64,000 nucleotides of DNA from Pedosphaera sp. (GTDB lineage Bacteria; Verrucomicrobiota; Verrucomicrobiia; Limisphaerales; SIBH01). The stretch is from positions 1 to 64,000 of the forward strand of contig JANOQV010000030.1 in assembly GCA_031414955.1 (NCBI GenBank), given 5' to 3'. The position numbers and the translations under genes are program-made. The notes under the pieces are model-generated. The model saw only the letters and a program-made list of their open reading frames with translations, was not told where the DNA came from and ran no database searches. Shown here in pieces: positions 5,570 to 62,927 of the stretch. The number at the start of each line of letters is the position of its first letter. Position 1 is the stretch's first letter.

Positions 5570-5714
5570 GCCCACGCCCAGACACCACAAGCTTCCCCGG
5601 CTTGGGTTGGTCAAAGGCGATGGGGAAAGGTCAGCAGAAGGTGCGGGCAGCGTCGAGAGATAATTGGCGGAACGCCGCCATCAGGGCGCAGCTTGCGGGC
5701 CTGTTACCCCAATC

Positions 5715-11070: not shown

Positions 11071-11072
11071 CC

Positions 11073-11891
11073 ATGAATTTTCTCCGCGACATTCCCGGTT
11101 TGATTAAACGCCACTATGAGAAGGCCATTCTCGCGTTGGCCTTGCTCGGTCTGATCGCGGCCGTCGTTTATCTGAACGACATGAAAAACGCCGAGAACGA
11201 AAAGATCGTGACCTATCAGAAAGGCATCCCGAAACGCAAATCGAACCCGGTTCCATCCATCGACAGCACCGCCCTTACCATCGCGCTCGACCACGCCAAA
11301 AATCCGCCCGCTCTGAGTTTCTCCCCGCCGCACAACTTGCTCAACCCGGTCAAGTGGCAGAGGCGCCCTGATGGCACCTTGGTCAAGGTCGAGACGGGCA
11401 AGGAAGTCGGCTCCGAAGCCTTGGAAGTGGTCAAGATCGCCCCGCTGAATCTGATCATCACCCTCGATCAGGCGGCGGGCAGCGGCTTCAACATGGGCGT
11501 CGTTCAGGAAGGCGCGACCAACCCCGCTTTACGCCGCAAGTTTGTCTCCTACGTGACCACTAATTCCCCGACGGATCGGATTCATAGCACCAAGGTTTTC
11601 AAATTGGTGGACGTGAACCGGGCGGCCACCCCCCCCGAGGTTTCCATCGAACTCGCCGATGGCAAGATCGTGACTGTGGCCGCCGACAAGCCTTTCTCTC
11701 ACGTTATGGGCTACAAGGTGGATTTGAATTACCCCCCGGAAAAACGAATGTTCGCCGACCGTCGGGCCGGCGATTCCATCACTCTGGGCGATGAAGTTTA
11801 CAATATCGTTGCCATCACTCTGAACGAGGTTGTAATCTCAGCCCGCTCAAACAACAGACGTACATTTATTCGGAACAATGCTACCCCATAG
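11073..11891 (+). CDS. Amuc_1099-like / PilP-position pilus system protein, 272 aa
   Basis: IKRHYEKAILALALL N-terminal anchor. C-terminal beta-rich GDSITLGDEVYNIVAITLNEVVI, typical of PilP/GspC-HR-like domains. Sits between the PilO-like gene and the secretin. Confidence 0.7.
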   Translation: MNFLRDIPGLIKRHYEKAILALALLGLIAAVVYLNDMKNAENEKIVTYQKGIPKRKSNPVPSIDSTALTIALDHAKNPPALSFSPPHNLLNPVKWQRRPDGTLVKVETGKEVGSEALEVVKIAPLNLIITLDQAAGSGFNMGVVQEGATNPALRRKFVSYVTTNSPTDRIHSTKVFKLVDVNRAATPPEVSIELADGKIVTVAADKPFSHVMGYKVDLNYPPEKRMFADRRAGDSITLGDEVYNIVAITLNEVVISARSNNRRTFIRNNATP

Positions 11892-15805: not shown

Positions 15806-17251
15806 ATGTCACCCGCTGTGCGCGCCCGAAAATGGATGATCCTGACGGGTTTGCTTTGTGCCTTTCCGTCCTTGCTTTGGAGCCAGACCAACGCGTTACA
15901 GGGGGGCGATGCGCCCTTCAGCGGTCCGCTCAGCGGAGATCAGGTTTTCCCCTCGGTCGCCTTTGGCGCGGGCGGGGGGTTTATGGTCTGGCACGACAAC
16001 GTGACGGATCCAAGCGGCTTCGGGGTCAGAGTTTTGCGACTGGATGGAGGTCTCAACCCGGTCGGCAGTCCGCAAGTGGTGAATCAAACCCTGGGCCGGG
16101 ATCAACAGCGGGCCCGGGTGGCGATGCTTGCTGACGGAGGCGGGGTGGTCGTCTTTCAAAACGGCAAACCGGGCATTCAAAATGTCTCCGCGCGGTTTAT
16201 CAGTCCGGCGGGCGAGTTCACGACCGGAGAACTTTTGGTCAATGATAAATTCACCGGAGTCGTGCATCGTTACCGGACCAATTGGACGCTCATTTACAAC
16301 AACCGGCCCCACAAGATTCGCTACTTGGTGCGCGAGGTGATCAAGGCCCGGCAAGAGTTCAACTCCAGTCCGGTCGTGACCACGCTCCACGATGGCAGCG
16401 TGGTCGTGGCTTATAGCAGCAGTCGCGTTTACACCACGAACACGGTTGGTCTCAGCGAACGGGTGCGTTGGAATGATCGTCGGGAGATTTTCATCACCAA
16501 CCGCACCCGCGTGCCCCTGAGTTTCAAAGCCGACGTCATGCAGGACGTTTACGTGCAGCGATTCTCTGGCACCGGAGCAAAGCTGGGCGCGGAATTTCGC
16601 GCCAACCAGTTCGCGGATTTTAACCAGCGGGATACGACCGTGGCCGCGCTTGAAAATGGCAGCTTCGTGGTGGCCTGGGCTTCGGAGCAGCAGCGTACCA
16701 ATTTTTATGCCGACACCTACCTGAACCCGGTCGATGTCTATGCGCGGATTTTCGATAACTTGGGCAACCCCTTGGGTGATGAGTTCCGCCTCAACACCAC
16801 CAACCGGGCCTCCGGCGGGCCGACGGTGGCCGCGACGGCGGGTGGCGCGTTCACCGTGGCTTGGACGCAGAAGTCCAATCAGCGCAGCAACGGACTCGAC
16901 ATTGTGGCGCGCACGTTCAACTCGGGCGGCACCGCTTCCAGCGATGTTTTTGCGGTCAACAGTTTCACCTACGGCGATCAGTACTCGCCCTCCCTCGCCT
17001 CGGTCGGGGTCCAGCAAGTGGTGGTGTGGTCGAGCATGGGGCAGGATGGATCTCGGGAAGGCGTGTTTGCCCAGGCCTTGGATGGCTCCACGCCGGTGGG
17101 CGCGGAGTTCCGGGTCAACGTCTCCACGCGCTTCAGCCAGTTTCATCCGCGGGTTGCGGGTGATAGCACGGGCCGGGCGCTGGTGTTGTGGTCGGGCTAC
17201 GCCTTGGACAGCGGGTTTGATTTGTTTGGCCGGAAATACCAGGCACCTTGA
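15806..17251 (+). CDS. Exported repeat protein (EFRVN...Q..P.VA...G.FVV.W repeats; probable beta-propeller)
   Basis: Signal-like KWMILTGLLCAFPSLLWS (start uncertain: 15785, 15806 or 15836). About 7 repeats such as GAEFRANQFADFNQRDTTVAALENGSFVVAW, GDEFRLNTT, GAEFRVNVSTRFSQFHPRVA. Confidence 0.8.
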   Translation: MSPAVRARKWMILTGLLCAFPSLLWSQTNALQGGDAPFSGPLSGDQVFPSVAFGAGGGFMVWHDNVTDPSGFGVRVLRLDGGLNPVGSPQVVNQTLGRDQQRARVAMLADGGGVVVFQNGKPGIQNVSARFISPAGEFTTGELLVNDKFTGVVHRYRTNWTLIYNNRPHKIRYLVREVIKARQEFNSSPVVTTLHDGSVVVAYSSSRVYTTNTVGLSERVRWNDRREIFITNRTRVPLSFKADVMQDVYVQRFSGTGAKLGAEFRANQFADFNQRDTTVAALENGSFVVAWASEQQRTNFYADTYLNPVDVYARIFDNLGNPLGDEFRLNTTNRASGGPTVAATAGGAFTVAWTQKSNQRSNGLDIVARTFNSGGTASSDVFAVNSFTYGDQYSPSLASVGVQQVVVWSSMGQDGSREGVFAQALDGSTPVGAEFRVNVSTRFSQFHPRVAGDSTGRALVLWSGYALDSGFDLFGRKYQAP

Positions 17252-17262
17252 GCACGAATTTT

Positions 17263-18681
17263 ATGTTGCGGATCTGCAAAACTCTTTTGACCGGGGCGGT
17301 GACGCTGGCGGCGACGCAGTTGGCCATGGGCTTCGTGCTGCTGGGGCCGGGCGGCGCGGAAGGCAATGCCGCCAAGGACTGGCAGTTGCCAGCCCAGAAT
17401 GACGGCTGGGAGATTGGTTACGGCTTGACCGGATCGATTGGCGCGCCCGTGTTTCCGTGGGAAGCCTACCGCTGCAATGTCCCGGTTCTCTACTACGCCT
17501 TCGACCAGGCCTTCATCGCTTACTTCGGCACGAACGGCATGAAGGCCGTGGACAATGCGATGCGCATTCTGAACGAACTGCCCTCGGTTAATACCATGTC
17601 CCGGAGCCTCTATGAGTTTCCGCTCTCGGCGCAGGGCGTTAATTATGAGGCGGCCGAGCTTGGGTTGGTGGATCTCAAATCGCAGGTGCTGCAAGCGATG
17701 CTTGAGCATTTGGGGGTGGAGGATTCGATCAACTGGGTTTACGGCATCCGCCAGCGGATCAATCTGCCCAACGATTATGGCGATTATACCGTCATCAAGT
17801 ACAACCTCGACCCCGTCACGCTCCTGACCTCCAGCTATGTGAACGGCACGCTTTGGACTTACAGCATCTTTGAAAACATCCCGACCCAGACTTCTGATGC
17901 GGTGGAAAATGTTCCGGCCGGACTCGAGAGTCAGCCCATTAACATCCCGGTGGGATCGCGTTCGTTCGCCCCGATTCCTGGCACGTTTTTCACCGGGTTG
18001 ACCCGGGACGATGCTGGTGCGCTGCGCTATTTGCTCCATCCTCGCAACATCGTTCCCGAGACGCTTCTGCCCGGCATTCTGCCTGGGGGAACCGAAGGGT
18101 GGCTGCCGTTCCTTGGGACCAACTTTGCCGCCACCAACTCGACCCTGACCAACTTTCCAACCGTGGGTCTGCGGGGCGGCATCGGCAAGGTCCGCTTCCA
18201 GAAAGTCTATTTCGATTCCATCATCGGAACCGGTTTTGTCACCTTCACCAACCGCTACAAGGATTACGTTATTGCCACCAATGCGGAGTGGACCAGCCAA
18301 TGGGTGCTGCGGCCGGTTCTTCAGCCGGACATCCTCTTCACGGCGGCGGATCTTGGGCCGGGACCTTACCTCAGCCGCACCACCTCGGCTGGCTGGATCA
18401 ATGACGATTTGATTGCCGGCAGTTCCACTTTGGGCGGACCTGGAGTGATCACCGGTCCGGTGACCATCACTTTTAACCAGTTGCTTCCCTTCTTGAACAA
18501 CATCACGCCGTCTTTCATCACCGAGCCGTTCCGCACCGACCCGCGCGCCCGCGGACTTTTAAGCCCGACTTGGGCGTCGTTTAACGGCACGACCAACGCG
18601 CCCATCATCTACCCGCGTTTGCAGAACATTTCCCTGAACTATATCCGCAGCCTGGCCAATGAAGCGCCGGTCAACCCATGA
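17263..18681 (+). CDS. Exported hypothetical protein with degenerate matrixin/metzincin-like motifs, about 472 aa
   Basis: Signal peptide MLRICKTLLTGAVTLAATQLAMG (alternative TTG start at 17248 overlaps the upstream stop). DLKSQVLQAMLEHLGVED and GLTRDDAGALRYL resemble matrixin motifs without the His ligands. Confidence 0.75.
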   Translation: MLRICKTLLTGAVTLAATQLAMGFVLLGPGGAEGNAAKDWQLPAQNDGWEIGYGLTGSIGAPVFPWEAYRCNVPVLYYAFDQAFIAYFGTNGMKAVDNAMRILNELPSVNTMSRSLYEFPLSAQGVNYEAAELGLVDLKSQVLQAMLEHLGVEDSINWVYGIRQRINLPNDYGDYTVIKYNLDPVTLLTSSYVNGTLWTYSIFENIPTQTSDAVENVPAGLESQPINIPVGSRSFAPIPGTFFTGLTRDDAGALRYLLHPRNIVPETLLPGILPGGTEGWLPFLGTNFAATNSTLTNFPTVGLRGGIGKVRFQKVYFDSIIGTGFVTFTNRYKDYVIATNAEWTSQWVLRPVLQPDILFTAADLGPGPYLSRTTSAGWINDDLIAGSSTLGGPGVITGPVTITFNQLLPFLNNITPSFITEPFRTDPRARGLLSPTWASFNGTTNAPIIYPRLQNISLNYIRSLANEAPVNP

Positions 18682-21600
18682 GCGCGACCCTCTCTCCCCT
18701 TGCCGTTATGAAGCGACTTAGCATCTTGTGGCTGGTGTTGTTCAGCGCCTTGGGAGTGTCGAAATCCTCGGGCGCGACCCCCGTGCCGCTCATCTTTGTG
18801 AACAACAATCCGGTCCAGCCGCCGGAACTGCCGCCGCAGATCGATGCCACGATTTTTTGGAATCGCGCCCTGTTCGTGGTTTCCAATGACTTCCTGTTTC
18901 CCGGCCTGTCCGTCCTGCCTTACTCGGGGAAGAGCGTGCGTTTTTGGACCAACAACAGCGTGATGCTCGGGTTGCCCGGCTTCGATTTCCAGTATGTGCC
19001 CAATCGGGTTCATCTTACTCAGGCGCAGCGACTGCGCCGGGGTGCGAATCTGCCGCAGCCTTCCCGGCTGTTCTTCAATGACGGCCAGATCACGGTGTCC
19101 GATTACCTGTCCATTCGCGCGGTGAACATTGTCAATCCCGGCGCGCTTATCGGCGATCTGCGTGCCCGGGTCAACCTCACCACCACGAACGGGCTGGCCG
19201 ACCTTTCACGCGGCGCGTTTCGTGTCGGAGAATTACCGCTCCCGGAATGTTCCACGGGGGGAGGATTTTTCTTCGATCCGCAGTTGCGCAACATTTACGC
19301 CAGCATCGGCACCAACGGTTCGGTGAACAGCAATCAGTTCTGGGCTCCCTTCACTTTGTCTTCTCTGGGTAACAGCTTCACGCCGATTGGTTCTGCCCCG
19401 CCACCCTTTCAGCGTATTCAGATCAACGCCATCTACCCCGGTGCCCCCGCGACCAACCGGAGCACGAACCTGATCTTTGGTCTCACGAACTGCGGTGATT
19501 ACGGTTCTTTCGTCCACGTTGTGACCAACTTGACTACGGTCGGCTTAATCCAAGTTACCAACTTGAACGTGAACATGGTCTTCGTTCCGACGAACGGATT
19601 CACCGAGGGCACGACCGTCGATGTGGGCTTCCCGTTCGGCGGCCTGGCGGCTCCCGTTGTGCAGTTTCGCACGCCGGATTTCGATGTCATCGGCCAGAAG
19701 TCGCTCACGAATTTTCTCAACTTCACGGACTCTGGCAATGGAGCCAGGATTTACCGGGGCCGCGACTGCTTCTTTGATACCTACCAGAAGTCCAACACGC
19801 CCTACGCGCCCGGGCTGTTCCACGATTTCCGGTTTGAGACCAACCGGCTTTACACCTACTCGGCGTCCCTGAATCAGATCGGCAACACCAACTCGTTTTA
19901 CCATACCAACCTGCTCTCCGCGCTGGTCTTCACGGAATTGGGCAAATCTCCGGCGGCGAGCGATCCGACCAATTACAACGGCCTGGTCCAGATCAAGGCA
20001 CTCCGTCTAAACCTGGCCCAGGCGCGCATCCGCGGAGAAAATGCCGTGGACATTTACACCAGCAACCTGGTGGACATGACCGACTCGGCCATCGACTCGC
20101 CCTTTATTAATTTCGATGTCAGCACGACTAACAATACCCTGGTGGTCTCCAACCTGTTCCGCCCGATCGTGAATCGTTTGCAAGCGACCTTGGAATCGTG
20201 GACGGCGGTGTGGACGTCCAGCGTCACCAACGGATTATCCACCAACGTGGTCAATGGCACGAATGTTGTGACGCCCATCCTTGCCACTTGGAATTATCGC
20301 GTGCTGGTGCTTGGAGCCTGCATCGCGACCGAGCAGCCGGCCATCATGCACAAATTTACGCTCCACGCGGACAACATGATCATCAGGGACAAGCTGGCGG
20401 TGAACAATGCGCTGCGTCTGGACGGGAAGACGCTGCACTTTGGGCCCGGTTCCGGCCTGTCGCTGCCTTTCAACACCAGCCTGGCTTTCACCAACCTGAT
20501 CGGCATCACCCGGCTGACCAACGAAGGAGTGCTCAACATTCCGCGGGCCGCGTTCTTCGGGTCGTTCGTGGATGGTTATGTGCAGCCTCCCAGGCGGAGG
20601 ACGGGTCGCGCGCCCCGGCCGCGCCTCGTCACTTACGAGAGCCTGGTCAACCGCAACACGATTTCCGCCGCCAGCTTTTCGACCCGCGCGAACTACGTGG
20701 AGATTGCCGGCCCTCAGTTCTTCCCCGCGCTGCTGGAGGCGAACAACGGTTTGATCGAGATCAACGGGGCCACGGTTGTGGTCAGCAACGCCGTGGTGCG
20801 GTCGCAGTCGGACATTCTAATTACCGCCGGCAATTTGCTCGCCACGAGTTCCACCTTGGTGGCCGGCACCAACGGCACGGTGGGCAATTACATTCCTGGT
20901 GCGCTGGTCATTGATGCCACGAACTCCATCACGGACGGTGGTCCCAACGCGGGCAACCGCTGGCTGGTCACGAGCGGGGCGCGGATTCTGCGTCGTCCGG
21001 CCAATGGTGGTGATCTGATGGGCACGCGCCTGGTTTCCAGGGCGAGCACCTTTGCCAAGTCCGTTATCAGTTGGGCCGGCTTGAACCTCGGCTCCAGTCC
21101 TTCCGGCTTCACCAATAATCTTGCGCTGGGCCGCCTGACCCTGGATGGCGCGGTGGGCACGAGCTTCCGTTTCAAGAGTGCCGGAACGGGTAACGCGATC
21201 TACATCGACTATCTGGAGATGATCAATTTCCCGACGAATTTCAGCCTCGCCAGCGTGCTGTCGGTGGATCCGGATTTCACCCTCTATTTTGCCGACTCGA
21301 ACATTCCAGCGGGCAACTTGACCAACAACTCAGGCGGACGCATCCGCTGGGTGAGCGACTTCGCCGGCCCGCAAAGCTCGACCAACATCACGTATCCGAA
21401 CGGCCTGACCTACACCTTCAACTCCGCTTTGGTGCGGAGCCGGGACTTGGATTCGGACGGAGACACCATTTTTAATGGCAATGATTGCACGCCGTTGGCC
21501 GTGCCCGGCTTTGACAGCACCCAGCCGTGCCCGCCCGCCCCGGATGTGGCCGGTGTTTCCGCGACGGCTTCGGCCGACCTTGGGTTGAGTATCTCGCTGG

Positions 21601-21809
21601 ATGGATCGGGCCAACAAGTCGTGCTGGACTGGACTGCGCCGGCTGCCTCCGCGAACACGGTCGAGTTCAGCGACTCGGTGACGACGGATGCGTGGCAGAC
21701 TTTGACGAATTTTATCAATGGTCCAGTGACAGCACGGGTGACGGTGAAGGATGCCGTAGGCGCTCCCCTGCGCGTTTACCGCGTCCGGGTGGACGCTGGC
21801 AAACCGTGA
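18678..21809 (+). CDS. Large exported beta-rich hypothetical protein with TSP3-like Ca-binding motif and conserved C-terminal domain, 1043 aa
   Basis: ATGA overlap with the upstream stop (alternative start 18708, MKRLSILW). Signal peptide; DLDSDGDTIFNGND motif; C-terminal VVLDW...W.TLTN...RVYRVRV. Confidence 0.85.
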   Translation: MSATLSPLAVMKRLSILWLVLFSALGVSKSSGATPVPLIFVNNNPVQPPELPPQIDATIFWNRALFVVSNDFLFPGLSVLPYSGKSVRFWTNNSVMLGLPGFDFQYVPNRVHLTQAQRLRRGANLPQPSRLFFNDGQITVSDYLSIRAVNIVNPGALIGDLRARVNLTTTNGLADLSRGAFRVGELPLPECSTGGGFFFDPQLRNIYASIGTNGSVNSNQFWAPFTLSSLGNSFTPIGSAPPPFQRIQINAIYPGAPATNRSTNLIFGLTNCGDYGSFVHVVTNLTTVGLIQVTNLNVNMVFVPTNGFTEGTTVDVGFPFGGLAAPVVQFRTPDFDVIGQKSLTNFLNFTDSGNGARIYRGRDCFFDTYQKSNTPYAPGLFHDFRFETNRLYTYSASLNQIGNTNSFYHTNLLSALVFTELGKSPAASDPTNYNGLVQIKALRLNLAQARIRGENAVDIYTSNLVDMTDSAIDSPFINFDVSTTNNTLVVSNLFRPIVNRLQATLESWTAVWTSSVTNGLSTNVVNGTNVVTPILATWNYRVLVLGACIATEQPAIMHKFTLHADNMIIRDKLAVNNALRLDGKTLHFGPGSGLSLPFNTSLAFTNLIGITRLTNEGVLNIPRAAFFGSFVDGYVQPPRRRTGRAPRPRLVTYESLVNRNTISAASFSTRANYVEIAGPQFFPALLEANNGLIEINGATVVVSNAVVRSQSDILITAGNLLATSSTLVAGTNGTVGNYIPGALVIDATNSITDGGPNAGNRWLVTSGARILRRPANGGDLMGTRLVSRASTFAKSVISWAGLNLGSSPSGFTNNLALGRLTLDGAVGTSFRFKSAGTGNAIYIDYLEMINFPTNFSLASVLSVDPDFTLYFADSNIPAGNLTNNSGGRIRWVSDFAGPQSSTNITYPNGLTYTFNSALVRSRDLDSDGDTIFNGNDCTPLAVPGFDSTQPCPPAPDVAGVSATASADLGLSISLDGSGQQVVLDWTAPAASANTVEFSDSVTTDAWQTLTNFINGPVTARVTVKDAVGAPLRVYRVRVDAGKP

Positions 21810-21943
21810 TGGGGCGAGTCTTGTGCCGGCTCGCCGTCTCATCCCGTGCGCTGGCTTCGGTAGAGAAAAAGTGTCGCAGCCTGCTGGGTGAACTCGGGTT
21901 CACGCCGGTGGGAGCGTCACCAAACAGTTAAGCGCGCAATCAC

Positions 21944-24900
21944 ATGAAGACGTTTCGTTGGCTCGCGGCAGGGGTGTTTCTAGCACTCCTCATCGCGCTG
22001 GTTTTCTGGCGAACCAGCGGGAGGGACGTGGTCGGGTCATTTTCTCCCATTCCGTCGGTTTCGCCGGCCTTGGTCTCCGTCGCGCCCGCGCTGGTCGCGC
22101 CCGCCGATGTTTCCGCTCCAGTGGCCTCGCCGGTTGCGCCCGCCACCGTGTCCGGCACGAATGCTCCTCTGGTTTCCTTCGAGAGTTGGGTGCGTGATTT
22201 CTTGGTCAGCGATGTCTCGGCCCGGCCCGCGCTGGCGGCGCAAGGCGCGCAACTCGTCTCCGCCCGGCAAGAGGAGATGGCCGCTCTCATTCGCACCAAT
22301 CCCGAGGAAGCCATCCGGCGGTCCTTGCCATATAGCGTGCGCAAACAACTGCCGCCGGAAATCGCCTCCCAAATCGAGCAACCGGTGAGCGGGCGTGGTT
22401 CCTTCCGTCCGCTCTATTACGTCCCGTTGCCCGGCCGGGAGAGCGAGGTGCCGCCGACCGGTTACGAAGTCACCATGAACGGCACGGATTACGAGACCCA
22501 CGCTTACGGGGATCGGCTTCATCATCCGGCCCGGGATGGTGCTTATCTGCACGGAGTGTCGGTGAAAGAGCGCGCAAAGACGAAACCGTTGCTCGCCTTG
22601 AGCGATGAGGCCCACCGGCTGATCACAGACCGGGGAGAGGCGCGGGATTTGGTGAGCACGGGGCAACTTCAGGCCGATGCTTTATGTGGTGTCACGAAAA
22701 AGCCTGCCTCGTCGGATCAGCCCGTGATTTCCCAATACGGCGAGCATTACTATGCCTTCTGCGAGCCGGCTCATGCGAAGCAACTGAATGCCACCTTGAA
22801 GCGGGCCAGTGCGGTGAGTTGGGCTTTGGGGGGCGCGGGCAAGGTTTCCGGTCCGAACGCCACCAATGTTCAATTCGAGGGCTTCAGCCGCACCCAAGGC
22901 CGCAAGAAGCTGCTCTACATCCGGGTGTTGTTCGCGGACGACATCAATCCACCGCAGACCGACGATCAGGCCCAGGCCACGGTGCTGGCGAACAATCGAT
23001 ACTTTCATGAAGGTTCCTACGGCACGGTCTGGTGGGAATCGACCGTCACGCCGCTGATCCGTCTGCCCCAGCGCAAGAATTATTACGGTGAGAATGAAGG
23101 CGCGCTGCTCGGAGATGCGCGCAACGGTGCCGCCGCTCTCGGTTATTTTCCCGGTGATTATTTTGGTCCCTCTTACGTGCTCTGCACCAGCATGCCCCAG
23201 TATCTCTATGGTGGTATTTCGAGCGGCGTCTTGAACGGTTCTCCCGGTGCGATCACGCATGAATTGGGCCATAACTTTAATCTGCCGCACGCGAATTTCT
23301 GGCAACCCGAAGGCTCCCTGCCGGGCCCGGTGCAACCGCAGAACCTGTCGCCTTGGCCCATCGACCCGGATGCGCTCAACGGCCACAACGACATCAACGC
23401 GCCCTACATCATTGGACTGGGTGGTGCCCAACCCTCGCAGGAGTACGGCAATCCTCGCGACGTGATGGGCAGCGGTCCCGGTCACTTCAGCGCCGTGGCC
23501 AAGCGATACATGGACTGGCTCCCGCAGGATTTCGTCAAGACCGTCACCGTCAGCACGACCAATCGCCTCTACGCCTTTGACACCCCGCGCATCGATCGCG
23601 GTCGGCTCTATGCCATGCAGATTCGCAAGGACGTGACCCGGGAATACTGGTTGAGCTACCGGCAGGGATTCGCGGCCAATCCATGGTTCTCCAATGGTCT
23701 CGAAGTGGAATGGAACCTCGGCGGTGAGAACGTGGACGAAACCTTCATCATGTTCGGCAACGAACTCATCGACACCACGCCGGACACGAGCTACGGGAAA
23801 GAGGATGCCGCGCTCATCGTGGGGCGCACTCTTTCCGACCCCGCTGCCAGTCTCCACATCACGCCCATCGCCCGCGGCGGCGGGCCGGTTTCCTCTGACA
23901 AATGGATCGATGTCGTGGTCATGAAGGGAAGCTTCCCCGGCAATCAGATTCCGACCATGACTCTGGAGGCCAGTGCGCTGACCGTGGCGCAGGGTGCGAT
24001 CGTGGATTTTACCGTGATCGCGCAGGACGCCGATGGTGATGCCCTGGCTTACAACTGGGACTTCGGCGACTGGACCTTCGGGACCAACGGGCCGGTGCAA
24101 AGCAAGACCTTCAACGCCAACGGCCAGTATGTGGTGCGTTGCGAGGTTTCCGACATGAAGGGTGGGCGGGCCAGCCGCCAACTCGTCCTCACCGTGGGTT
24201 CACCCACGACCTACACCATCAGCGGGCGCGTGCTCGACACCGAAGGCAATCCGGTCGAGGGCGTGCGCATCCATAACAACGGCGTGCGACCGGTCAATCC
24301 CCCCGCCGATCCTTATGCCCCTTACACGAACGCGCCGGTGGACGTCGGCACTTACCGCTACGGCTATACCGACACGGACGGCTTTTACGTGATCGGCAAT
24401 GTGCCCGACGGCACCTACGTGGTGCGAGCCTTCAAGTACGGTTACAGCACCATGCCCCTGGACTTCACCGACCCGGTGAATGTGAATGGCAACGCCTCCG
24501 GCCTCAACTTCACCGCCACCAAGCTGGCGCGGGTCAGCGTCGCCTGGACCGCCGACGCCACCGAGCCGGGGGACGAGTACGATCCGGCCGAGGACGGCGT
24601 GTTCACCATCACGCGCGAGGGCGGCGAATTTTCCCAGGACCTGCCGGTGGTGTTTACCATGAGCGGACGGGCGCTTTATGATTTCGACTACGGTCTGGCG
24701 GGCACGGACAACCTGGCCACCAATTGCGTGTACGAGACCAACGGCACGGTCATCACCACCAATTGCGTGGTCTTCACCACGCCGCGCGGGCAGTTAATCA
24801 TCCCCGCCTTCCAGTCCTCGATTGATGTGCATGTGATCCCCACCAACAATTTTCTTGGCGATGGGGCCAAGTCCGCGGTCATGACGCTCATCCTGCAAAC

Positions 24901-33391: not shown

Positions 33392-33491
33392 TCAACTTGC
33401 GCCTAGAATTATCTGTGTGCGAGAACTTGCGCCCTCCGAACGAAGCGAACGGCGCGGAGCGGGAATTCCGGGCATTTTAGAGTTTTTGAGT

Positions 33492-41444: not shown

Positions 41445-41471
41445 CGGACAGCAGCAATTTTGCGAAGAACT

Positions 41472-55778: not shown

Positions 55779-55826
55779 CGAATGGAATGAAGTTAGGTGG
55801 CGCGAAGAGCGCTTGAATTTATCGCC

Positions 55827-55868
55827 GGACGCAGGCGGGACGTTTCCGCCCGCGTTCGCGCGTTTTTT
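55827..55868 (+). terminator. Possible intrinsic terminator between the 4768-aa gene and the M36 gene
   Basis: Imperfect stem GGACGCAGGCGGGA-cgt-TTCCGCCCGCGTTC, then GCGCG and TTTTTT. The U-tract is offset from the stem. Confidence 0.35.
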
Positions 55869-55883
55869 GGATGGTTAAGTGAT

Positions 55884-58800
55884 ATGAAACGCACTCTTGT
55901 TGCTGTGTCGGCCCTGTTGGCGGTCTCCGCCCTGGCGGTTCTCCCTCCCGGGAGAGCACCGCTGCCCAACCTCGATCGGCGTGCCTCGCGGGCCGCGAAC
56001 CTGCCCAACGAAGTGGCGCCCGAGCAGGCGGTCGCCGTGTCGGCCTTGCGCTCCCGCGTGCCGGGCCTGAAGGTCACGCGCAGCGTGGTGCTGGGATCGC
56101 CGGTCTTTTTCTCCTCGACCGACGCGCTGCTCACCGGGCCGGACGCGCAGGGTCTGGGCGTGCTGCCGGCCACGGCCCAAGGCATCCCATCCAACGATCC
56201 GCATCGCGCGGTCAAAGCCTTTCTCAACGAACACGCCGGATTGATCGGATACAACGCCAGTGCCCTGACGGGTGCCCGCGTGAGCCGCGACTACGTGGCC
56301 ACGCACAACGGGATGCGGACCGTGGTCTGGCAGCAGGAGTTGAACGGGCTGCCGGTCTTCGAGGCCATCACCATGGGGCACATCACTTCCCAGGGCGAAC
56401 TGGTGAACCTCTATTCGCATTTTCTGCCCGACGCCAGCACGGCGGCGGCGCGCGGTTTGAAGGGGCGGGCTACGGTCGCGGCGGCGGCGGGTGCGGTTCA
56501 AATCTCGGTGCTGACGGCCATGTCCGTTGCGGCCGGCAATCTCGGGGATGTGGTTGCTCCTGGATCGTTGACCAGCCTCGGCGCGGCCCAGGGTCCGGCG
56601 CTCAAGCAGACGTTTCGTGGCTCGGGCGCGCTCAATGGCGACCAATACGGCGAACTGGTCTGGCTGCCTATGAACTCCGGCCTGGCCCGGCTCTGCTGGC
56701 AGGTCATCATCACCAGCAAGGCGCGCGGTGAAATGTTCCTGCTCCTGGTCGATGCCGAGACCGGCGAGGTTTTGCTGCGGCGCAATCTGACCAGTTACAT
56801 CACCAACTCGACCTACAACGTGTGGACCAGCGACAGCCCTTCTCCCTTCTCGCCCGGTTATCCCACGCCCGGAAATCCGGCCCAGCCGGCGGTCATCGCC
56901 CGGACTCTCGTGACCATCCCGGCTTTGAACACCAACGCCTCGCCGCTCGGCTGGATCGCCGAGACCGTGAACGAGACGCTGGGCAACAACGTCGATGCGC
57001 ACACCGACCACAACGACAACAACCAAGCCGACCTCCCGCGGCCGACGGGCAATCCGTTCCACGTTTTTGATTTTCCGATCGATTTGGCCAAGTCGCCGAC
57101 CAATTACAGCACGGGCGCGGTGGTGCAGCTCTTCTACTGGAACAATTTCGTGCATGACAAATTGTGGGAGATGGGTTTCACCGAGGCGGCGGGCAATTTT
57201 CAGACGACGAATTTTGGGCGTGGTGGCCTGGGCAATGATGCGGTGCAGGCCGATGCCCAGGATGGTGGAACCCTGAACGACGGGTTTCATGTCAACAACG
57301 CCAACATGTTCACGCCGCCCGACGGTTTTCCGGCGCGGATGCAAATGTATCTGTTCGATGGCACGGATCCCGACCGGGATGGCGATTTCGACGCGGAGAT
57401 CATCATCCACGAATACATGCATGGCCTGAGCAATCGCCGGGTTGGAGGCGGCATCGGGATTAGCACCCTGCAAGCGGCGGGCATGGGGGAAGGGTGGGGG
57501 GATTTTTACGGCTTGAGCATGCTCAGTGAATCCAACGACCCCATCAACGGCGAATGGGCCATGGGCGGTTATGCCACACTCAATTTTGCCGGCCTCAACC
57601 TGACGGATAATTACTACTTCGGCATCCGCCATTTTCCGTACTCCACGAATCTTTTGAAGAACCCGTTCACCTTCAAGGACATCGACCCGACTCAGATCAG
57701 TCCTCATGCTGGGATTCCCCGCAGTCCGCTGTACCTTCCGTACACTCCCTTCGAGGCCGATGAGGTTCACCATCAGGGCGAAGTGTGGTGCGTAACCTTG
57801 TTCGAGATGCGGGCCAATCTCATTGCGAAGTACGGCTTCGCGGGCAACCGGGTCGCGCTCCAACTCGTGACCGATGCCATGGCCTTGTGCCCGCCCAACC
57901 CTAACTTCCTCCAATCGCGCGATGCCATTCTGCAGGCCGACGTGGTCAACAACACCAACGCCAATTACGCCGAGATTTGGAAAGCATTTGCCAAGCGTGG
58001 CATGGGGAGCAGCGCGACCTCGCCGAACAGCACGACCACCGTGGGCGTCCATGAGTCCTTTGACTTCCCGGGCCTGGCGGTTACGACGGTCGCGGTGAAT
58101 GACGTCTTCTCCGGCAATGGCAACGGGGCCATCGATTTCAATGAATGCGTCGAGATTTCGGTGGGGTTGCGCAATAACTCCGTCACCACGGCCCGCTCGG
58201 TGTCCGGCACCCTGCGGACTACGACTCCGGGGGTGACCATCGCCCAGTCCAACGCCGTCTATGCGGATCTGGCGCCGGGTGCCTCGGGGTTGAACCTCAC
58301 GCCTTACCGTGTTTATACCGATCCGACCTTTGTTTGCGGCACCCCTATTCAGTTCGCGCTCGTGGCTTCGGCCATCACCACCACGCAGTCCGTGACCACG
58401 AATTTGTTTCAGTTGCGCAGTGGCTTCGTGAGCCTCAACCCCACGTTGATCAACAACAGCACGCCGGCCAGCATCCCGGACGGCAGCACCAACGGGGTGG
58501 AGTCGTTGATCAATGTTTCTGGTCTCGCGGCCGCCGTGGGCAAGATCACAGTTTCTCTCCATCTTACCCACACCTACGCCAGCGACCTTCTCCTCCAGTT
58601 GATCGGCCCGGATGGCACCACGGTGGACCTCTCCCAAAATCAAGGCGGGGCCGGGCAGAATTTTGGGGCGAGCTGCAGCCCGACGACCTTGCGCACCACT
58701 TTTGATGACAACGCGCCCCAGGCGCTGAGTTCCGCAGTCGCACCCTTCATCGGCACGTTCCGTCCGGATGAAACTTTGACCGCCTTCGCGGGTAAATCCG

Positions 58801-61800
58801 GCGCGGCTTTGAACGGCACCTGGCGTCTGCGGATCGTGGACGGCTTCCCGCAGGATGCCGGGACGTTGCAGTGCTGGACCTTGGCGCTTTATCCCACGCT
58901 CTGCACCAATGGCGGAGGCACCTGCGTTTCCGACGTGGCGCTGAACGCCACCGCCGCGCCCGACCCGGCTGTGGCGGGCTTTGATCTGACCTATCAACTT
59001 GCCGTGACCAACAGCCGCCCGATCCCGGCCTCCGCTGTGGTGCTCACCCATGTCCTTTCCTCGAACGCCACCTTCGTTTCCGCCCTCTCCAGCCAGGCGG
59101 CTTGTGCGTTCAACAACGGCACCGTGACATGCGTGTTCGGCACCTTGCCGGTTGGGGCCAATGCCAGTGCCACCATCGTGATCCGGCCGCTCGCCGTGGG
59201 CCTCATCAGCAGCGTCTTCTCCGCTGGCTCCTCCACGCCGGACTCCAACCTTTCCAACAATGTCGTCACGCTGAACTCGGTCGTAATCGGGCCGGCTCCG
59301 GCCTTTGCTGCCGCCGGCGCGCAGGTCGTCGCCGAGAGCATCGCGCCGCCAACCGGTGGCATTGAGGCCGGAGAGACGGTGTCCGTGAACCTGGGCCTGC
59401 GTAACGTCGGGCCGATTGCCTCGGGGAACCTCGTGGCCACTCTCATCGAGGGCAACGGAGTAATCGCTCCTGGTGCCGCCCAGAGTTACGGCGCGATTGC
59501 TTCGGGCGGCGTGGGGACGCAGTTGTTTTCCTTCTCGGCTCCGGGCGCGCCCGGCACCTCCATCGACGCCGTGTTGCAACTTCAGGATGGGGTGCAAAAC
59601 CTGGGTGTTGTTACCTTCCACTTCACCGTCGGTGGCGAGGTCACGTTCGAGAACAACGCCCCCATCGTGATCAACCAGTTTGGGGCCTCGACGCCGTATC
59701 CGTCCGTGATCAACGCCGGCGGCGTGGTCGGCTCGCTGGCCGGGGTGCGGGCCACGTTCACCAAGCTCACCCACAGCTTTCCCGATGACATCGACGCTTT
59801 GCTGGTCAGCCCGCAGGGGCAGAGGCTACTGCTCATGTCAGACGCGGGAGGCAACGTCGCGATCACCAACCGTACGCTTACTTTCGACGATGCGGCGGCC
59901 GGCCCGTTGCCCAACGAGACGGGCCTGGTGGCGGGCAGCTTCCGTCCCTCAAATTTCGATTCCGGCACCGAGCCGGGCGGAGACATCTTTCCCGCGCCCG
60001 CGCCCGTCGGTTCACTCATCACTTCCCTGGCGGGCTTTGCCGGCAGCGATCCGAACGGGCCTTGGTCGCTGTTCATTCACGACGATGGCGGTGGGGATGC
60101 CGGCTCGGTTTCCGGTGGTTGGTCGCTGACTTTGAACACGGTTTATCCGGTCAATCCCTTGGCCGATCTCGCCGTGACGGCCGTGGCGGTTCCCGCTGCG
60201 CCCATCCTTGATGAGCCGCTCACCCTGATCCTGACTGTGACCAATCTTGGCCCTAGCAATGCGCCTTCCGTGGTCCTGACCGACGTTCTCCCGGCCGGCA
60301 GTTCCTTCGTGAACGGTTCCGCCAGCCAAGGCGGGGGAGTGAGTTTCGCTGCTGGAGTCGTGACGGCGAATCTTGGCTCGATGAACGTCGGCTCCAGCGC
60401 CACGGTCACGATTCAATTGACACCCACAGCCCTCGGCCTGGCCGTCAACAGCGCCACCGTCTCGGGTGCTTTGACTGATCTGGTGCCCGTCAACAACACC
60501 GCTATCACGGCGCTCACGGTGGGCAGTCCCGTGGGTGATGTGTCGCTGTCGGTCGTCGCTTCGGCCCAGCCGGTGTTCCTCTCCAGCAATGTCGTCTTCA
60601 CCGTGCTCATCACCAATCGCGGTCCGAACCACGCCGCCCATGTGCAGGCCGGCACTTTCATGGCCTCCGTGCTGAGCGTGGTCTCCGCTGTCACGACGCA
60701 GGGTGGATGTGTTTTCGCCAGTGGCCAGGCGCTCTGCGACCTCGGCGATCTTCCGGCCAACGGCAGCGCGGTCGTGACCATTACCGCCGTGGCTTCGTCC
60801 ATCGGTTCGGCCCCGGCCAATTTCGCCGTGAGTTCCGACCCGACCGACCCCGTGCCGGCCAACAACTCGACCAACCTGCTTTGCACGGTCATTCCGACCT
60901 CGCCGGTGATTGTTCCGGCTGGCTCCGCGCTGCTCAACGAAGCCCTTCCGGCCAACGGCTCCATTGAATCAGGCGAGACCGTGACCTTGAGCTTCGGCCT
61001 GCGTAACGTCGGCAACGCCGACGCCGCGGACCTCATCGCCACGCTCCTTCCAACCGGTGGCGTCACTGGCCCGGGCGGACCGTTCCATTTCGGTGCGCTG
61101 CTCGCGAACGGTCCCACCGTCTCGAAGCCTTACAGTTTCACCGCGGGCGGCGCTCCGGGCAGCGCGCTCACGGCCACATTCCAGTTGTCGGACAACGGGC
61201 AAAGCCTCGGCACGGCGGTGTTCGCCTTTACCTTGAGCGCGAGTCGCTCCTTCACGAACAGCAACCTGATCATCATTCCCAACCAGGGACAGGCCACGAA
61301 TTATCCTTCAACGCTCAACGTCTCCGGCATTGCCGGCGCGGCCAGCCGGGTGACCGTGAATATCAAACAGTTGACTCACACCTTCCCCGAAGACATCGAC
61401 CTGCTCCTCGTTGGTCCCGCCGGGCAGAAAGTGCTGCTCATGTCCGACGCGGGCGCGGGCAATGCCGTCAGCGGCGTCAACCTGACTTTCGACGACGCGG
61501 CCACGGCGCTGCCGTTTAGTTCTATTATTTCCAGTGGCACCTATCATGGGACGGATTATCCGCCTGGCGACACGTTCCCGGCTCCCGCTCCGGCTGGGCC
61601 TTACGGCACCAATCTCGCCGTGTTCAACGGGATCAATCCCAACGGCACCTGGTCGCTCTACATCTTTGATGACGCCGTCGGCGACGCGGGCCGTGTCGAT
61701 GGTGGTTGGACCCTGAACATCCAGACCGCCGCTCCCATCGTCTCCGCTGCGGATGTCGCGGTGACGGCGATCGCCCCGACGGTCGTCGAATCTGGCACGC

Positions 61801-62309
61801 CTTTCAGCTACGTGCTGACGGTGGCAAATTTCGGACCGGCACCCGCCACTGGCGTCACTTTGAGTGATTCGTTGCCGGCGGGTTTCATCCTCAGTGGCGT
61901 CACGGTCAGTCAGGGCAGCTACAGCACTGGTCCTGGCACCATCACGGCAAACCTTGGAGCGCTCGCCCTTGGTGCCACCGCCACCGTCACCGTGAATGGT
62001 GCCGCCGTCGGGCCGATCACTCTCGTGAATCTCGTCTCCGTCAGCGCGGTTCAGGCCGATCCCAATCCGGCCAACAATCTCCTCGCGCCGGCGACGACGG
62101 TGAACGCGCTTGCCCTCACCATCCAGCGCAGCGATGGCAACGTAATCATCACCTGGCCGTTCCCGGCCCCGGGCTACGTCCTGCAATCCGCCGCCACCAT
62201 CGAGGGGCCGTTTACCAACTCGGGCCTTTCCGTCACGACGGTCAACGGTCGGAACCAGGTCGTCGCGCCCGCCACCGGATCGACCTACTACCGCCTCCAG
62301 AAACCGTAA
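55884..62309 (+). CDS. Exported M36 (fungalysin-family) zinc metalloprotease with FTP/PepSY-like propeptide, 3 P-domains, DUF11 repeats and C-terminal domain; about 2141 aa
   Basis: Signal MKRTLVAVSALLAVSALA and propeptide with LVDAETGEVL. TLGNNVDA, GFTEAAGNFQ, NNANMFTPPDG..ARMQMYLF, HEYMHGLSNR (57408-), GMGEGWGD, EVHHQGEVW, FLQSRDAILQAD, FAKRGMG. Confidence 0.93.
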   Translation: MKRTLVAVSALLAVSALAVLPPGRAPLPNLDRRASRAANLPNEVAPEQAVAVSALRSRVPGLKVTRSVVLGSPVFFSSTDALLTGPDAQGLGVLPATAQGIPSNDPHRAVKAFLNEHAGLIGYNASALTGARVSRDYVATHNGMRTVVWQQELNGLPVFEAITMGHITSQGELVNLYSHFLPDASTAAARGLKGRATVAAAAGAVQISVLTAMSVAAGNLGDVVAPGSLTSLGAAQGPALKQTFRGSGALNGDQYGELVWLPMNSGLARLCWQVIITSKARGEMFLLLVDAETGEVLLRRNLTSYITNSTYNVWTSDSPSPFSPGYPTPGNPAQPAVIARTLVTIPALNTNASPLGWIAETVNETLGNNVDAHTDHNDNNQADLPRPTGNPFHVFDFPIDLAKSPTNYSTGAVVQLFYWNNFVHDKLWEMGFTEAAGNFQTTNFGRGGLGNDAVQADAQDGGTLNDGFHVNNANMFTPPDGFPARMQMYLFDGTDPDRDGDFDAEIIIHEYMHGLSNRRVGGGIGISTLQAAGMGEGWGDFYGLSMLSESNDPINGEWAMGGYATLNFAGLNLTDNYYFGIRHFPYSTNLLKNPFTFKDIDPTQISPHAGIPRSPLYLPYTPFEADEVHHQGEVWCVTLFEMRANLIAKYGFAGNRVALQLVTDAMALCPPNPNFLQSRDAILQADVVNNTNANYAEIWKAFAKRGMGSSATSPNSTTTVGVHESFDFPGLAVTTVAVNDVFSGNGNGAIDFNECVEISVGLRNNSVTTARSVSGTLRTTTPGVTIAQSNAVYADLAPGASGLNLTPYRVYTDPTFVCGTPIQFALVASAITTTQSVTTNLFQLRSGFVSLNPTLINNSTPASIPDGSTNGVESLINVSGLAAAVGKITVSLHLTHTYASDLLLQLIGPDGTTVDLSQNQGGAGQNFGASCSPTTLRTTFDDNAPQALSSAVAPFIGTFRPDETLTAFAGKSGAALNGTWRLRIVDGFPQDAGTLQCWTLALYPTLCTNGGGTCVSDVALNATAAPDPAVAGFDLTYQLAVTNSRPIPASAVVLTHVLSSNATFVSALSSQAACAFNNGTVTCVFGTLPVGANASATIVIRPLAVGLISSVFSAGSSTPDSNLSNNVVTLNSVVIGPAPAFAAAGAQVVAESIAPPTGGIEAGETVSVNLGLRNVGPIASGNLVATLIEGNGVIAPGAAQSYGAIASGGVGTQLFSFSAPGAPGTSIDAVLQLQDGVQNLGVVTFHFTVGGEVTFENNAPIVINQFGASTPYPSVINAGGVVGSLAGVRATFTKLTHSFPDDIDALLVSPQGQRLLLMSDAGGNVAITNRTLTFDDAAAGPLPNETGLVAGSFRPSNFDSGTEPGGDIFPAPAPVGSLITSLAGFAGSDPNGPWSLFIHDDGGGDAGSVSGGWSLTLNTVYPVNPLADLAVTAVAVPAAPILDEPLTLILTVTNLGPSNAPSVVLTDVLPAGSSFVNGSASQGGGVSFAAGVVTANLGSMNVGSSATVTIQLTPTALGLAVNSATVSGALTDLVPVNNTAITALTVGSPVGDVSLSVVASAQPVFLSSNVVFTVLITNRGPNHAAHVQAGTFMASVLSVVSAVTTQGGCVFASGQALCDLGDLPANGSAVVTITAVASSIGSAPANFAVSSDPTDPVPANNSTNLLCTVIPTSPVIVPAGSALLNEALPANGSIESGETVTLSFGLRNVGNADAADLIATLLPTGGVTGPGGPFHFGALLANGPTVSKPYSFTAGGAPGSALTATFQLSDNGQSLGTAVFAFTLSASRSFTNSNLIIIPNQGQATNYPSTLNVSGIAGAASRVTVNIKQLTHTFPEDIDLLLVGPAGQKVLLMSDAGAGNAVSGVNLTFDDAATALPFSSIISSGTYHGTDYPPGDTFPAPAPAGPYGTNLAVFNGINPNGTWSLYIFDDAVGDAGRVDGGWTLNIQTAAPIVSAADVAVTAIAPTVVESGTPFSYVLTVANFGPAPATGVTLSDSLPAGFILSGVTVSQGSYSTGPGTITANLGALALGATATVTVNGAAVGPITLVNLVSVSAVQADPNPANNLLAPATTVNALALTIQRSDGNVIITWPFPAPGYVLQSAATIEGPFTNSGLSVTTVNGRNQVVAPATGSTYYRLQKP

Positions 62310-62330: not shown

Positions 62331-62927
62331 ATGAAACTCTTCGGGCTGACCGGCGGGATCGGGATGGGCAAATCCACCTCGGCCGGCCTGCTCTCCCTCG
62401 GCGGGATTCCTGTCCTCGACACCGACGTCATCGCGCGGGAAATCGTCGAGCCGGGGCAGTCAGCCCTCACTGAGATCGCTGCGGCGTTTGGGGTTGAACT
62501 GATTGATGCCGAAGGGAAACTCCGCCGCGCCGCGCTCGCTGAGATTGTCTTTTCCTCGCCGGAGAAATTGAAGGAACTCGAAGCCATCCTGCATCCTCTC
62601 ATCCGCGAACGCTGGCGCGGCCAGGCGGCGCTCTGGCGGCGGGAAGGCCGGTTGGCCGGCGTGGTCATCATTCCTCTTTTGTTCGAGACCGGTTCTCAGT
62701 CGTACTTCGATTCGATCCTTTGCACCGTCTGCTCACCGCGCACCCAGCAGGAACGATTGGTCGCGCGGGGTTGGCCAGAACACCAGATCCAGCAGCGCCT
62801 GGCTGCGCAATGGCCGGTGGAAAAAAAGGTGGCCGCCTCGAATTTTGTGATCTGGACCGAGGGCGTGATGGAAATCCATCTCCTCCAGTTGCGGCGTATC
62901 CTCGGCGATTACCTGCCCCCACGCTGA
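62331..62927 (+). CDS. coaE: Dephospho-CoA kinase
   Basis: GLTGGIGMGKST P-loop, DTDVIAREIVEPG, LEAILHPLI, IPLLFE, QERLVARG. Confidence 0.95.
   Translation: MKLFGLTGGIGMGKSTSAGLLSLGGIPVLDTDVIAREIVEPGQSALTEIAAAFGVELIDAEGKLRRAALAEIVFSSPEKLKELEAILHPLIRERWRGQAALWRREGRLAGVVIIPLLFETGSQSYFDSILCTVCSPRTQQERLVARGWPEHQIQQRLAAQWPVEKKVAASNFVIWTEGVMEIHLLQLRRILGDYLPPR

Follow-up and report, generated by a model that had tools for sequence, protein, structure and literature searches.

The window considered here, a stretch of 64,000 nucleotides from Pedosphaera sp. (assembly GCA_031414955.1, contig JANOQV010000030.1), encodes a series of exported proteins rich in the dipeptide Thr-Asn (TN), and it is this dipeptide, as a possible recognition motif in exported proteins, that is analyzed below. 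Seven exported-protein genes lie back to back on the forward strand at 15836-62309 (46 kb), three of them having no Pfam family. They are given with the observed numbers of TN and of the reverse dipeptide Asn-Thr (NT) and with the TN number expected from composition; in the text, pairs such as 27/8.1 or 125/62 are observed over composition-expected TN.

15836..17251, + strand: exported protein, no Pfam family; TN 6, all in the extended motif defined below
17248..18681, + strand: exported protein, no Pfam family; TN 8, expected 3.0
18678..21809, + strand: exported beta-rich protein of 1043 aa, no known family; TN 27, NT 6, expected TN 8.1
21944..33391, + strand: Calx-beta/DUF5122 (delta-60)/DUF11/PKD surface protein of 3815 aa; TN 64, NT 13, expected TN 24.5
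24713-24766 and 24896-25003, + strand: two dense TN patches of the 3815-aa protein, starting at residues 924 and 985
33417..41444, + strand: Calx-beta/DUF5122 protein of 2675 aa, query of the cross-phylum control; TN 38, NT 7, expected TN 18.0
41460..55778, + strand: Calx-beta/DUF5122/DUF11 protein of 4772 aa; TN 65, NT 24, expected TN 36.0
55797..62309, + strand: M36 (fungalysin-type) peptidase with DUF11 and P-domains; TN 18, NT 4, expected TN 13.1

Summed over the seven proteins, TN occurs 226 times versus 104.5 expected (2.16), and NT 57 times; the excess is weak in the M36 protein (1.38). The original prediction, made from the letters of the window, had counted 27 TN versus 6 NT in the 1043-aa protein, with nine of the 27 also being canonical N-x-S/T, and both hand counts are exact. 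Its statement that composition alone cannot give this asymmetry agrees with 20,000 shuffles of the protein, where the maximum is 20 TN and none reaches 27, and both dense patches that it quoted are located in the 3815-aa protein. The first TN of the 1043-aa protein is at residue 91 (nucleotide 18948), and 23 of the 27 fit the extended motif T-N-x(not P)-uncharged.

The same excess is observed in the whole genome (G000; other G-numbers denote comparison Verrucomicrobiota genomes), which comprises 6.55 Mb in 313 contigs, with 95.9% completeness and 5.8% contamination. Here 4516 genes were called with our own dicodon model, and signal peptides were classed by a hydrophobicity heuristic, not SignalP. 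In 1169 signal-peptide proteins TN occurs 4161 times versus 1966 expected (2.12), being the second among 400 dipeptides behind CH of cytochrome motifs, while in 1666 cytoplasmic proteins the count is 832/711 (1.17), and 1.10 in a stricter cytoplasmic set. Other dipeptides of the signal-peptide proteins are not raised (NT 0.86, SN 1.03, TD 0.91, TQ 0.71). Local composition is not the cause, since the excess persists after shuffling inside 20-residue windows (5673 observed versus 2785 +/- 44), and the ratio is 2.0-2.1 under per-protein, 100-aa-window and 20-aa-shuffle corrections alike, not the value of about 1 that the original prediction gave as a refutation. This analysis confirms genome-wide that TN is about twice as frequent as expected by chance in proteins leaving the cytoplasm unfolded.

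A bias at the DNA or codon-pair level, or an artefact of gene calling and signal-peptide assignment, could in principle produce such numbers, the gene and signal-peptide calls having been made with our own scripts, and the DNA proxy used below for genome comparison does give false highs (G300, G048). However, all six ACA/ACC/ACG-AAY codon pairs are enriched 1.8-2.6 in exported genes and only 1.0-1.4 in cytoplasmic ones, and thus the signal is not a DNA motif; moreover, inside individual genes the excess sets in at the membrane segment, and misclassification would dilute the contrast rather than create it. We consider this explanation very improbable.

Likewise, a structural preference for TN in turns and strand ends of beta-rich surface domains could be amplified by repeat families, with nothing being modified. 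Many sites are indeed position-conserved, part of them perhaps for structural reasons, background accounts for about half of the total TN, the TN-rich giants contribute many counts, and some periplasmic sets have no excess. Still, in segments that lack a paralogue in this genome the excess is 2.06 and no dipeptide ranks above TN; in Ala/Pro-rich linkers it reaches 2.70, and in exported proteins rich in helix 2.32. Being equal in unique segments, higher in the disordered linkers and present in helix-rich proteins, the excess is not a repeat-family effect. Homologues speak against structure as well. The cross-phylum control comprised eight of the 30 listed plasmid matches (118 records in all) to the 2675-aa protein, chosen for spread over four other phyla (two from Hymenobacter and one each from Flagellatimonas, Nostoc, Gloeothece, Cereibacter, Methylobacterium and Deinococcus). 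These Calx-beta/delta-60 proteins taken whole have 57 TN versus 93 expected (0.61). Where window proteins and controls align with each other, the former have 125/62 (2.01) and the latter 29/54 (0.53), so that the same domains in other phyla show no excess; an equal ratio in such homologues is what the original prediction had named as a refutation. TD, normally the equivalent of TN in turns, is depleted in those window segments (0.24). In 63 homologue pairs with TN-poor Verrucomicrobiota the ratio is 1.88 in G000 and 0.69 in the partners, in 45 pairs within the order the TN-poor partners have 1.04, and close relatives such as G327 have no excess. The structural explanation is largely refuted by the unique-segment and cross-phylum results and appears improbable, and even structure and artefact taken together are quite unlikely; as judged from these alignments, the comparisons show the excess to be lineage-specific, not structural.

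The TN sites of the 1043-aa protein are conserved as well. For this analysis 28 of 32 matches to the protein were aligned, giving 27 homologues with 22-31 TN each versus 6-9.5 expected; four distant matches, having 33-35 TN each, were omitted. Thr in TN is kept in 72% of cases versus 30% for other Thr, and Asn in TN in 75% versus 48% for other Asn. The commonest replacement of TN is SN. At conserved sites Asn alone was lost 12 times and Thr alone 45 times (21 of them to Ser), and both were lost together 50 times versus 8.8 expected, a figure inflated by divergent sequences. An AlphaFold model of this protein has pLDDT of 76.6; a fold search with it against PDB gave nothing at E<=0.001 and only weak beta-helix look-alikes, and the Atlas search with the protein matched only unnamed Verrucomicrobiota clusters.

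The motif extends beyond the dipeptide. In exported proteins TN followed by Pro is near the other x-N-P (TNP 200/156 = 1.28 versus 1.13), while TN followed by any other residue is enriched 2.21. Two positions after Asn, charged residues bring the ratio to the background (TN-x-[KRDE] 0.84 versus 0.84), the group V, I, L, T, F, M gives 3.14, and Pro gives 3.02; the best single residues here include Thr, Val and Ile (3.0-3.3), and Ser is among the weaker ones. Before Thr, Gly is the best context (G-T-N, 3.06), followed by Pro (2.78). Ser is a weak stand-in for Thr (SN-x-[VILTFM] 1.54), and Asp is no stand-in for Asn (TD-x-[VILTFM] 0.77). The canonical sequon without preceding Thr is at background ([^T]-N-x-T 1.01, [^T]-N-x-S 0.92). 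At least one extended site is found in 847 of 1339 Sec proteins versus 612 after shuffling, and the sites in them number 4619 versus 1676. These counts show a four-position signal, (T>S)-N-x(not P)-uncharged/hydrophobic.

The signal further depends on the export route. In 1314 Sec-type proteins TN is 5637/2605 (2.16), and 1.94 in a subset matched for size and low Asn content, while in 76 proteins with twin-arginine (Tat) signals it is 54/62.4 (0.87). In 37 Ser/Thr kinases the kinase part has 10/14.2 (0.70) and the periplasmic part of the same chains 108/47.1 (2.29). Cytoplasmic domains of 74 membrane proteins have 38/42.0, and RND-like large periplasmic loops have 18/10.5. Barrel-like outer-membrane proteins have no clear excess (17/17.2; 112/91.8 in a looser set including non-barrels). 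Counts for other genes of the window are listed next; the names PilM and PilN are those of the original prediction.

1052..3421, - strand: YfhO-like GT-C membrane protein; TN 4
3695..5575, - strand: SGNH-TPR membrane-anchored protein; TN 4 past the membrane anchor, NT 0
5914-6966: COG0523 GTPase, cytoplasmic; TN 0
8295..10196, + strand: single 633-aa open reading frame with PilM and PilN parts, membrane segment at about residue 376; TN 0 before the segment and 2 after it
10198..11891, + strand: Amuc_1100-like protein (NF038287, below cut-off), then a second, membrane-anchored protein; TN 1 and 2
11917..14745, + strand: secretin (PilQ-like), next in gene order after these two; TN 1, NT 4, expected TN 3.3
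14796-15695: exonuclease; TN 1
62331..62927, + strand: CoaE, cytoplasmic control; TN 0

The occurrences that the original prediction reported in exported parts (PilN part, Amuc_1100-like and next gene, YfhO-like, SGNH-TPR), and its absences from COG0523, CoaE and the PilM part with a single TN in the exonuclease, are all found as claimed. Two exported proteins fit less well, namely the secretin PilQ, which is encoded in the same operon as PilM/PilN and is TN-poor (1 versus 3.3), and the M36 protein with its weak excess. The wording that TN is confined to exported sequences is too broad, since the excess follows the Sec route, Tat substrates lack it and outer-membrane barrels show no clear excess; the claim of a selected, export-linked recognition motif is well supported, provided that the motif is taken as the longer T-N-x(not P)-uncharged and as Sec only. 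The motif is thus shown to be restricted to Sec-translocated segments.

Among other Verrucomicrobiota the range was estimated by a DNA proxy, namely TN-x-V/I/M codons over NT-x-V/I/M codons, and by a double ratio. The proxy exceeds 1.2 in 48 of 61 Limisphaerales genomes (G000 included, median 1.37), in 8 of 100 genomes from other orders of the class (0.91) and in 32 of 200 from other classes (0.91). Because of false highs (G300, G048, G192, G250 and G005 drop to 0.8-1.06 with the double ratio), proteins in sampled DNA were checked. By protein count G313 (47/17.2) and G328 (72/31.0) are TN-rich, 80 loci of the TMEM260-like gene discussed below have 310/194 when pooled, and G149 and G257, from another class, have 151/70 with the same grammar. 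G065 (1.72), G074 (1.47) and G007 (1.35) are intermediate, with TN-x-hydrophobic at 1.9-2.2. No excess is seen in G327 (37/49.4 over 220 kb), G330 (25/26.3), G308 (11/18.4) and G341 (9/9.7), nor in pooled protein sets from other orders and other classes (0.87-0.91). For G194, G248 and G062 the two measures disagree, the proxy being high and 40-60 kb of protein showing no excess. Hence the trait is patchy even inside Limisphaerales, being strong in many of them and present also in some genomes of other classes.

As far as protein sequences tell, this lineage- and route-specific signal with sequon-like rules is real and strong. Consistent with the original prediction of a periplasmic modification, we infer that glycosylation of one of the two residues, Thr or Asn, is probable, although no STT3/PglB was found and no candidate transferase tracks the presence or absence of the motif inside the order. 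The best explanation, held tentatively and at somewhat below even confidence, is that (T>S)-N-x(not Pro)-hydrophobic serves as the acceptor sequon of a general periplasmic glycosylation, Thr-linked and made by a TMEM260-like enzyme, in many Limisphaerales and some other Verrucomicrobiota. A membrane GT-C enzyme would meet the chain still extended after the Sec translocon and transfer to it a sugar from a polyprenyl-phosphate donor; Tat substrates would lack the motif because they are exported folded, as we propose. Of the two possible acceptors the Thr hydroxyl would be the likelier, since STT3/PglB was not found in the genome, whereas a conserved TMEM260-like enzyme, whose periplasmic lobe has a Rossmann-like part and TPRs, is encoded there. 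The motif would have been doubled by selection for what the glycan provides, be it folding, protease protection or surface hydration, and in TN-poor relatives the enzyme may be kept for few clients, have other specificity, or a component may be absent. The strongest form, in which hundreds of proteins emerging from the Sec translocon are glycosylated at T-N-x-hydrophobic by a TMEM260-family GT-C enzyme, at its boldest on Asn and free of STT3, seems rather unlikely.

The enzyme inventory bears directly on the residue. STT3 (PF02516) has no match in G000, which is 95.9% complete; among 80 relatives one genome (G334) is over the cut-off, and eight have matches at E<=0.01. In G334, which belongs to the order, this protein (G334:C36 from about 67000, L031), a PglB/STT3-like open frame of 1628 aa, is the sole over-cut-off case and carries D-S-Y, R-T-M-A-G-Y-F-D-T-D and T-I-Q-E, presumably the PglB/STT3-like motifs. 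The GT41 (HMW1C/NGT-type) profile PF13844, the one profile used, has no match in this incomplete genome, while two of 14 control genomes matched. From 127 G000 proteins with at least seven predicted membrane segments, 20 non-transporters were picked by eye and then scanned for families, and two of them are TMEM260-like, L004 (G000:C241:30017-33610) and L003 (G000:C14:50536-53424).

L004 scores 100.9 bits against PF11028 (cut-off 24.2), and human TMEM260 (PDB 9RQL) is its sole PDB sequence match at E<=0.01 (E 2e-13). Human D52, H67, R264 and Y267, described as essential in the available text of bioRxiv 10.64898/2026.03.17.711096, align to D19, H34, R357 and Y360 of L004, the second stretch weakly (8 bits), and these four are invariant in 52 sequences, as is G-G-T-D632-P-G-R-F just past the first periplasmic strand. 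The L004 model has a GT-C fold (Z 19-23 to ALG12, ArnT, Pmt1/2 and STT3B) with a periplasmic Rossmann-like alpha/beta domain and TPRs; 9RQL is absent among the fold-search matches listed for it. In the panel of 80 genomes PF11028 matches 53, namely all 25 from the order, 4 of 22 from other orders and 24 of 33 from other classes, and none of the 22 genomes that score highest on the double-ratio proxy lacks it; the proxy exceeds 1.2 in 32 of 52 genomes with PF11028 and in 2 of 28 without it, a weak G006 match being counted as absent. Since the gene is intact in TN-poor relatives, it is at best necessary for the motif. A 246-aa GT2 protein (G000:C254:6484-7224) of the size of Dpm1/Ppm1 and of polyprenyl-phosphate sugar synthase type, with best matches AglJ and PpgS below cut-off, could be the sugar-donor supplier, judging from its family.

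The alternative of N-linked transfer, in which a non-STT3 GT-C enzyme (TMEM260-like, YfhO-like or unrecognised) modifies Asn in T-N-x(not P)-hydrophobic, with Thr at -1 replacing Ser/Thr at +2 for specificity and a hydrophobic pocket taking V/I/L/T at +2, is doubtful, though not negligible. As in N-X-S/T (PMC8342417, available text), Pro is excluded exactly at Asn+1; Asp and Gln do not substitute for Asn, at +2 Thr is among the most favoured residues together with Val and Ile, which resemble it, and the L004 model is as similar to STT3B, AglB and PglB (Z 19.5-21.3) as to Pmt1/2 (Z 22.0). The rarer loss of Asn alone at conserved sites points the same way, but says little, since Asn outlasts Thr outside TN too (48% versus 30%). 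On the other hand, neither STT3 nor GT41 (one profile) has a match in G000, N-x-S/T without preceding Thr is not enriched, and at Asn+2 Pro is favoured (3.0) and Ser is weak. The T>S pattern and the enzyme inventory favour Thr, while the Pro rule favours Asn.

It is about equally doubtful that the motif, although read on unfolded Sec substrates, is not for sugar at all, and serves another modification (phosphoglycerol, phosphoethanolamine, acyl, hydroxyl) or as a site for a periplasmic chaperone or quality-control TPR protein. Every sequence-level result is compatible with whatever factor reads extended chains, the motif is not tracked by the presence and absence of any of the 11 GT-C-type candidates covered in protein or family searches, and the TMEM260-like gene stands behind an extracytoplasmic function (ECF) sigma factor and near grpE-dnaJ, a quality-control setting. 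On the other hand, chaperones usually bind hydrophobic patches and not a polar dipeptide, and the analysis identified no enzyme for such an alternative; a strict hydroxyl residue with T>S preference, the exclusion of Pro and sites kept by the thousands in mature linkers and domains are what glycosylation sequons typically show (by the Bacteroidota precedent and otherwise as general knowledge). Of 80 loci, 53 have the ECF gene ahead of the TMEM260-like gene, 24 have grpE and 23 dnaJ, the last two being named from sequence. Around L004 (G000:C241:33749-34604) and in most of the other loci (L057-L136) the ECF sigma factor and a small membrane protein come before the gene, which is often near grpE-dnaJ-rsmE-like genes.

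Several observations weigh against Thr-linked glycosylation by the TMEM260-like enzyme. N-linked transfer is characterised by the exclusion of Pro from the position following Asn (PMC8342417, available text), and the human TMEM260 sequon, as given in the available text (bioRxiv 10.64898/2026.03.17.711096), is a long IPT-specific signature without T-N. TN-poor G327, G330, G308 and G341 have the TMEM260-like gene too, its catalytic motifs intact and unchanged, six other-class genomes with the gene have 44/48 TN pooled, and G104 and G290 have the gene and no excess; the link between PF11028 and the motif across genomes is confounded by kinship and by the proxy-based choice of the panel. A match of L004 D632 to the human catalytic D441 is not shown, the luminal part having given no alignment to 9RQL. 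The Tat set is dominated by few conserved enzyme families, which makes it a weaker control, and MacB-like periplasmic loops have no excess (7/6.2). Two crude topology splits (positive-inside rule; 'signal plus one TM') give no inside/outside contrast (2.11 versus 2.34, a split that was not inspected; 1.85 versus 1.91, where the top contributors look like periplasmic domains assigned inside). Finally, the original prediction expected the sites in exposed loops, and the model of the 1043-aa protein does not bear out a preference for loops: strands and loops are used alike, 11 of the 27 TN being strand-strand and nine loop-loop.

Other candidates were searched as single-protein queries against small sets of TN-rich and TN-poor genomes, a miss meaning not found with that query, and none of them tracked the motif; L001, L006, L007 and L018 were left out of the cross-genome searches. 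The YfhO-like protein of the window is full length only in G328 and TN-poor G327 (two of five genomes), and L002, also YfhO-like, is in four of five, including both TN-poor ones, and absent from G257. The TMTC-like L005 does not track the motif; Agl23-like L008, L010 and L011 are each in none of five genomes, L013 is full length in TN-poor G327 only, the Wzy_C-TPR protein L012 is in four of five, TN-rich and TN-poor alike, L016 is in one of 16 and L014 in none of 16. L009 is in 44 of 80 genomes, missing in G314 and G257 and present in TN-poor ones. L003 is in 10 of 10 genomes of the order, TN-rich and TN-poor alike. A tree of the TMEM260-like proteins (rows G149, G153 and G007 excluded as wrong-strand open frames) does not separate TN-rich from TN-poor genomes.

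Some further features of these genes were observed. L003 apparently lacks counterparts of D52 and H67, in a distant alignment, and its orthologues are most diverged in TN-poor G327, G308 and G341 (27-33% versus 38-55%). L009 (G000:C184:18848-20635) is a 595-aa single-copy GT-C protein that belongs to no named family; its gene has a response regulator on one side and, on the other, lies upstream of what appears to be a polysaccharide-export operon. In the window, two near-identical short type IV pilin-like genes, with starts GFTLVE/AFTLVE, stand tail to tail with the gene for the YfhO-like GT-C protein, which weakly matches streptococcal PgfM1/M2 in its C-terminal part; they form a possible pilin-glycosylation pair.

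294-638, + strand: type IV pilin-like gene
768-1112, + strand: type IV pilin-like gene

Titles of Akkermansia muciniphila, Bifidobacteriaceae, Haliangiales and Acidoferrum occur among the Limisphaerales-type TMEM260-like matches (44-62% identity) and may be mislabelled bins. Among 14 control genomes PF11028 matched in Bacteroides thetaiotaomicron alone, a member of Bacteroidota, the phylum with an undiscovered motif-directed O-transferase.

Our literature search, which covered few subscription journals, gave no description of a Thr-Asn motif and no Limisphaerales glycoproteome. If correct, the proposed system would be the second bacterial O-glycosylation motif, one whose four-position grammar can be read from genomes alone and which is naturally on in some close relatives and off in others, and glycoengineering could make use of the four-residue sequon. 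The roughly 3,000 excess sites of this one genome would imply a heavily modified envelope in Limisphaerales, which are abundant and barely cultured. Were the TMEM260-like enzyme responsible, a function would be found for a family that is widespread in bacteria and has a human disease gene among its relatives, and general glycosylation directed by a motif would become linked to bacterial TMEM260 homologues, the Bacteroidota transferase being a sister case. The Asn form would mean N-glycosylation read by a preceding Thr and made without an STT3-family enzyme.

Compared with N-glycosylation by STT3, AglB and PglB, the T-N motif shares the exclusion of Pro after Asn, the preference of Thr over Ser and the action beyond the membrane. 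It differs in that the hydroxyl residue is before Asn, not two positions after it, in that N-x-S/T alone is not enriched, and in that no STT3-family gene is found in G000 or, over the cut-off, in 79 of 80 relatives. Human TMEM260 (PF11028; PDB 9RQL/9RQM/9RQN), the O-mannosyltransferase of IPT domains according to the available text of bioRxiv 10.64898/2026.03.17.711096, resembles L004 in the GT-C core, the periplasmic alpha/beta domain, the TPRs and the four donor-binding residue counterparts. The same text has it acting on extended chains, which fits the Tat exclusion here. Still, the human enzyme, as described there, reads P-x5-P-x3-G-P-x2-G/A-G-G-x2-T/S on one domain family, while the motif here has four residues and is found in hundreds of unrelated proteins; the bacterial TMEM260-like enzyme has at least 1197 aa and the human one about 707.

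The O-glycosylation of surface-layer (S-layer) proteins in anammox Planctomycetes, with motif G-T/S (bioRxiv 10.1101/2020.12.03.409086, available text), is similar in belonging to the Planctomycetes-Verrucomicrobia-Chlamydiae group, in being O-linked and in having Gly before the hydroxyl residue, G-T-N being the best such context here. However, it is for S-layer proteins, its available text describes no Asn requirement, and the Gly preference here is modest.

The closest likeness is to the general O-glycosylation of Bacteroidota, where the motif D-(S/T)-(A/I/L/V/M/T) is enriched in noncytoplasmic proteins, and which the available text of PMC12871550 describes as the only bacterial O-glycosylation motif, with an undiscovered transferase. 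Both motifs are short, have an invariant polar neighbour and a downstream hydrophobic residue, are patchy among species, and occur in about half or more of noncytoplasmic proteins (PMC12871550, available text; here in the 847 of 1339 given above). Here, however, Asn follows the hydroxyl residue, the hydrophobic residue is three positions after it and Pro is excluded two after it, and the phylum is another one. D-T/D-S is not enriched in the exported proteins of G000 (DT 1639/2067 = 0.79, the three-residue motif itself not having been counted), and the T-N case, unlike that of Bacteroidota, is known from sequence alone. The T-N system is therefore not a member of the Bacteroidota O-glycosylation, but one that works like it.

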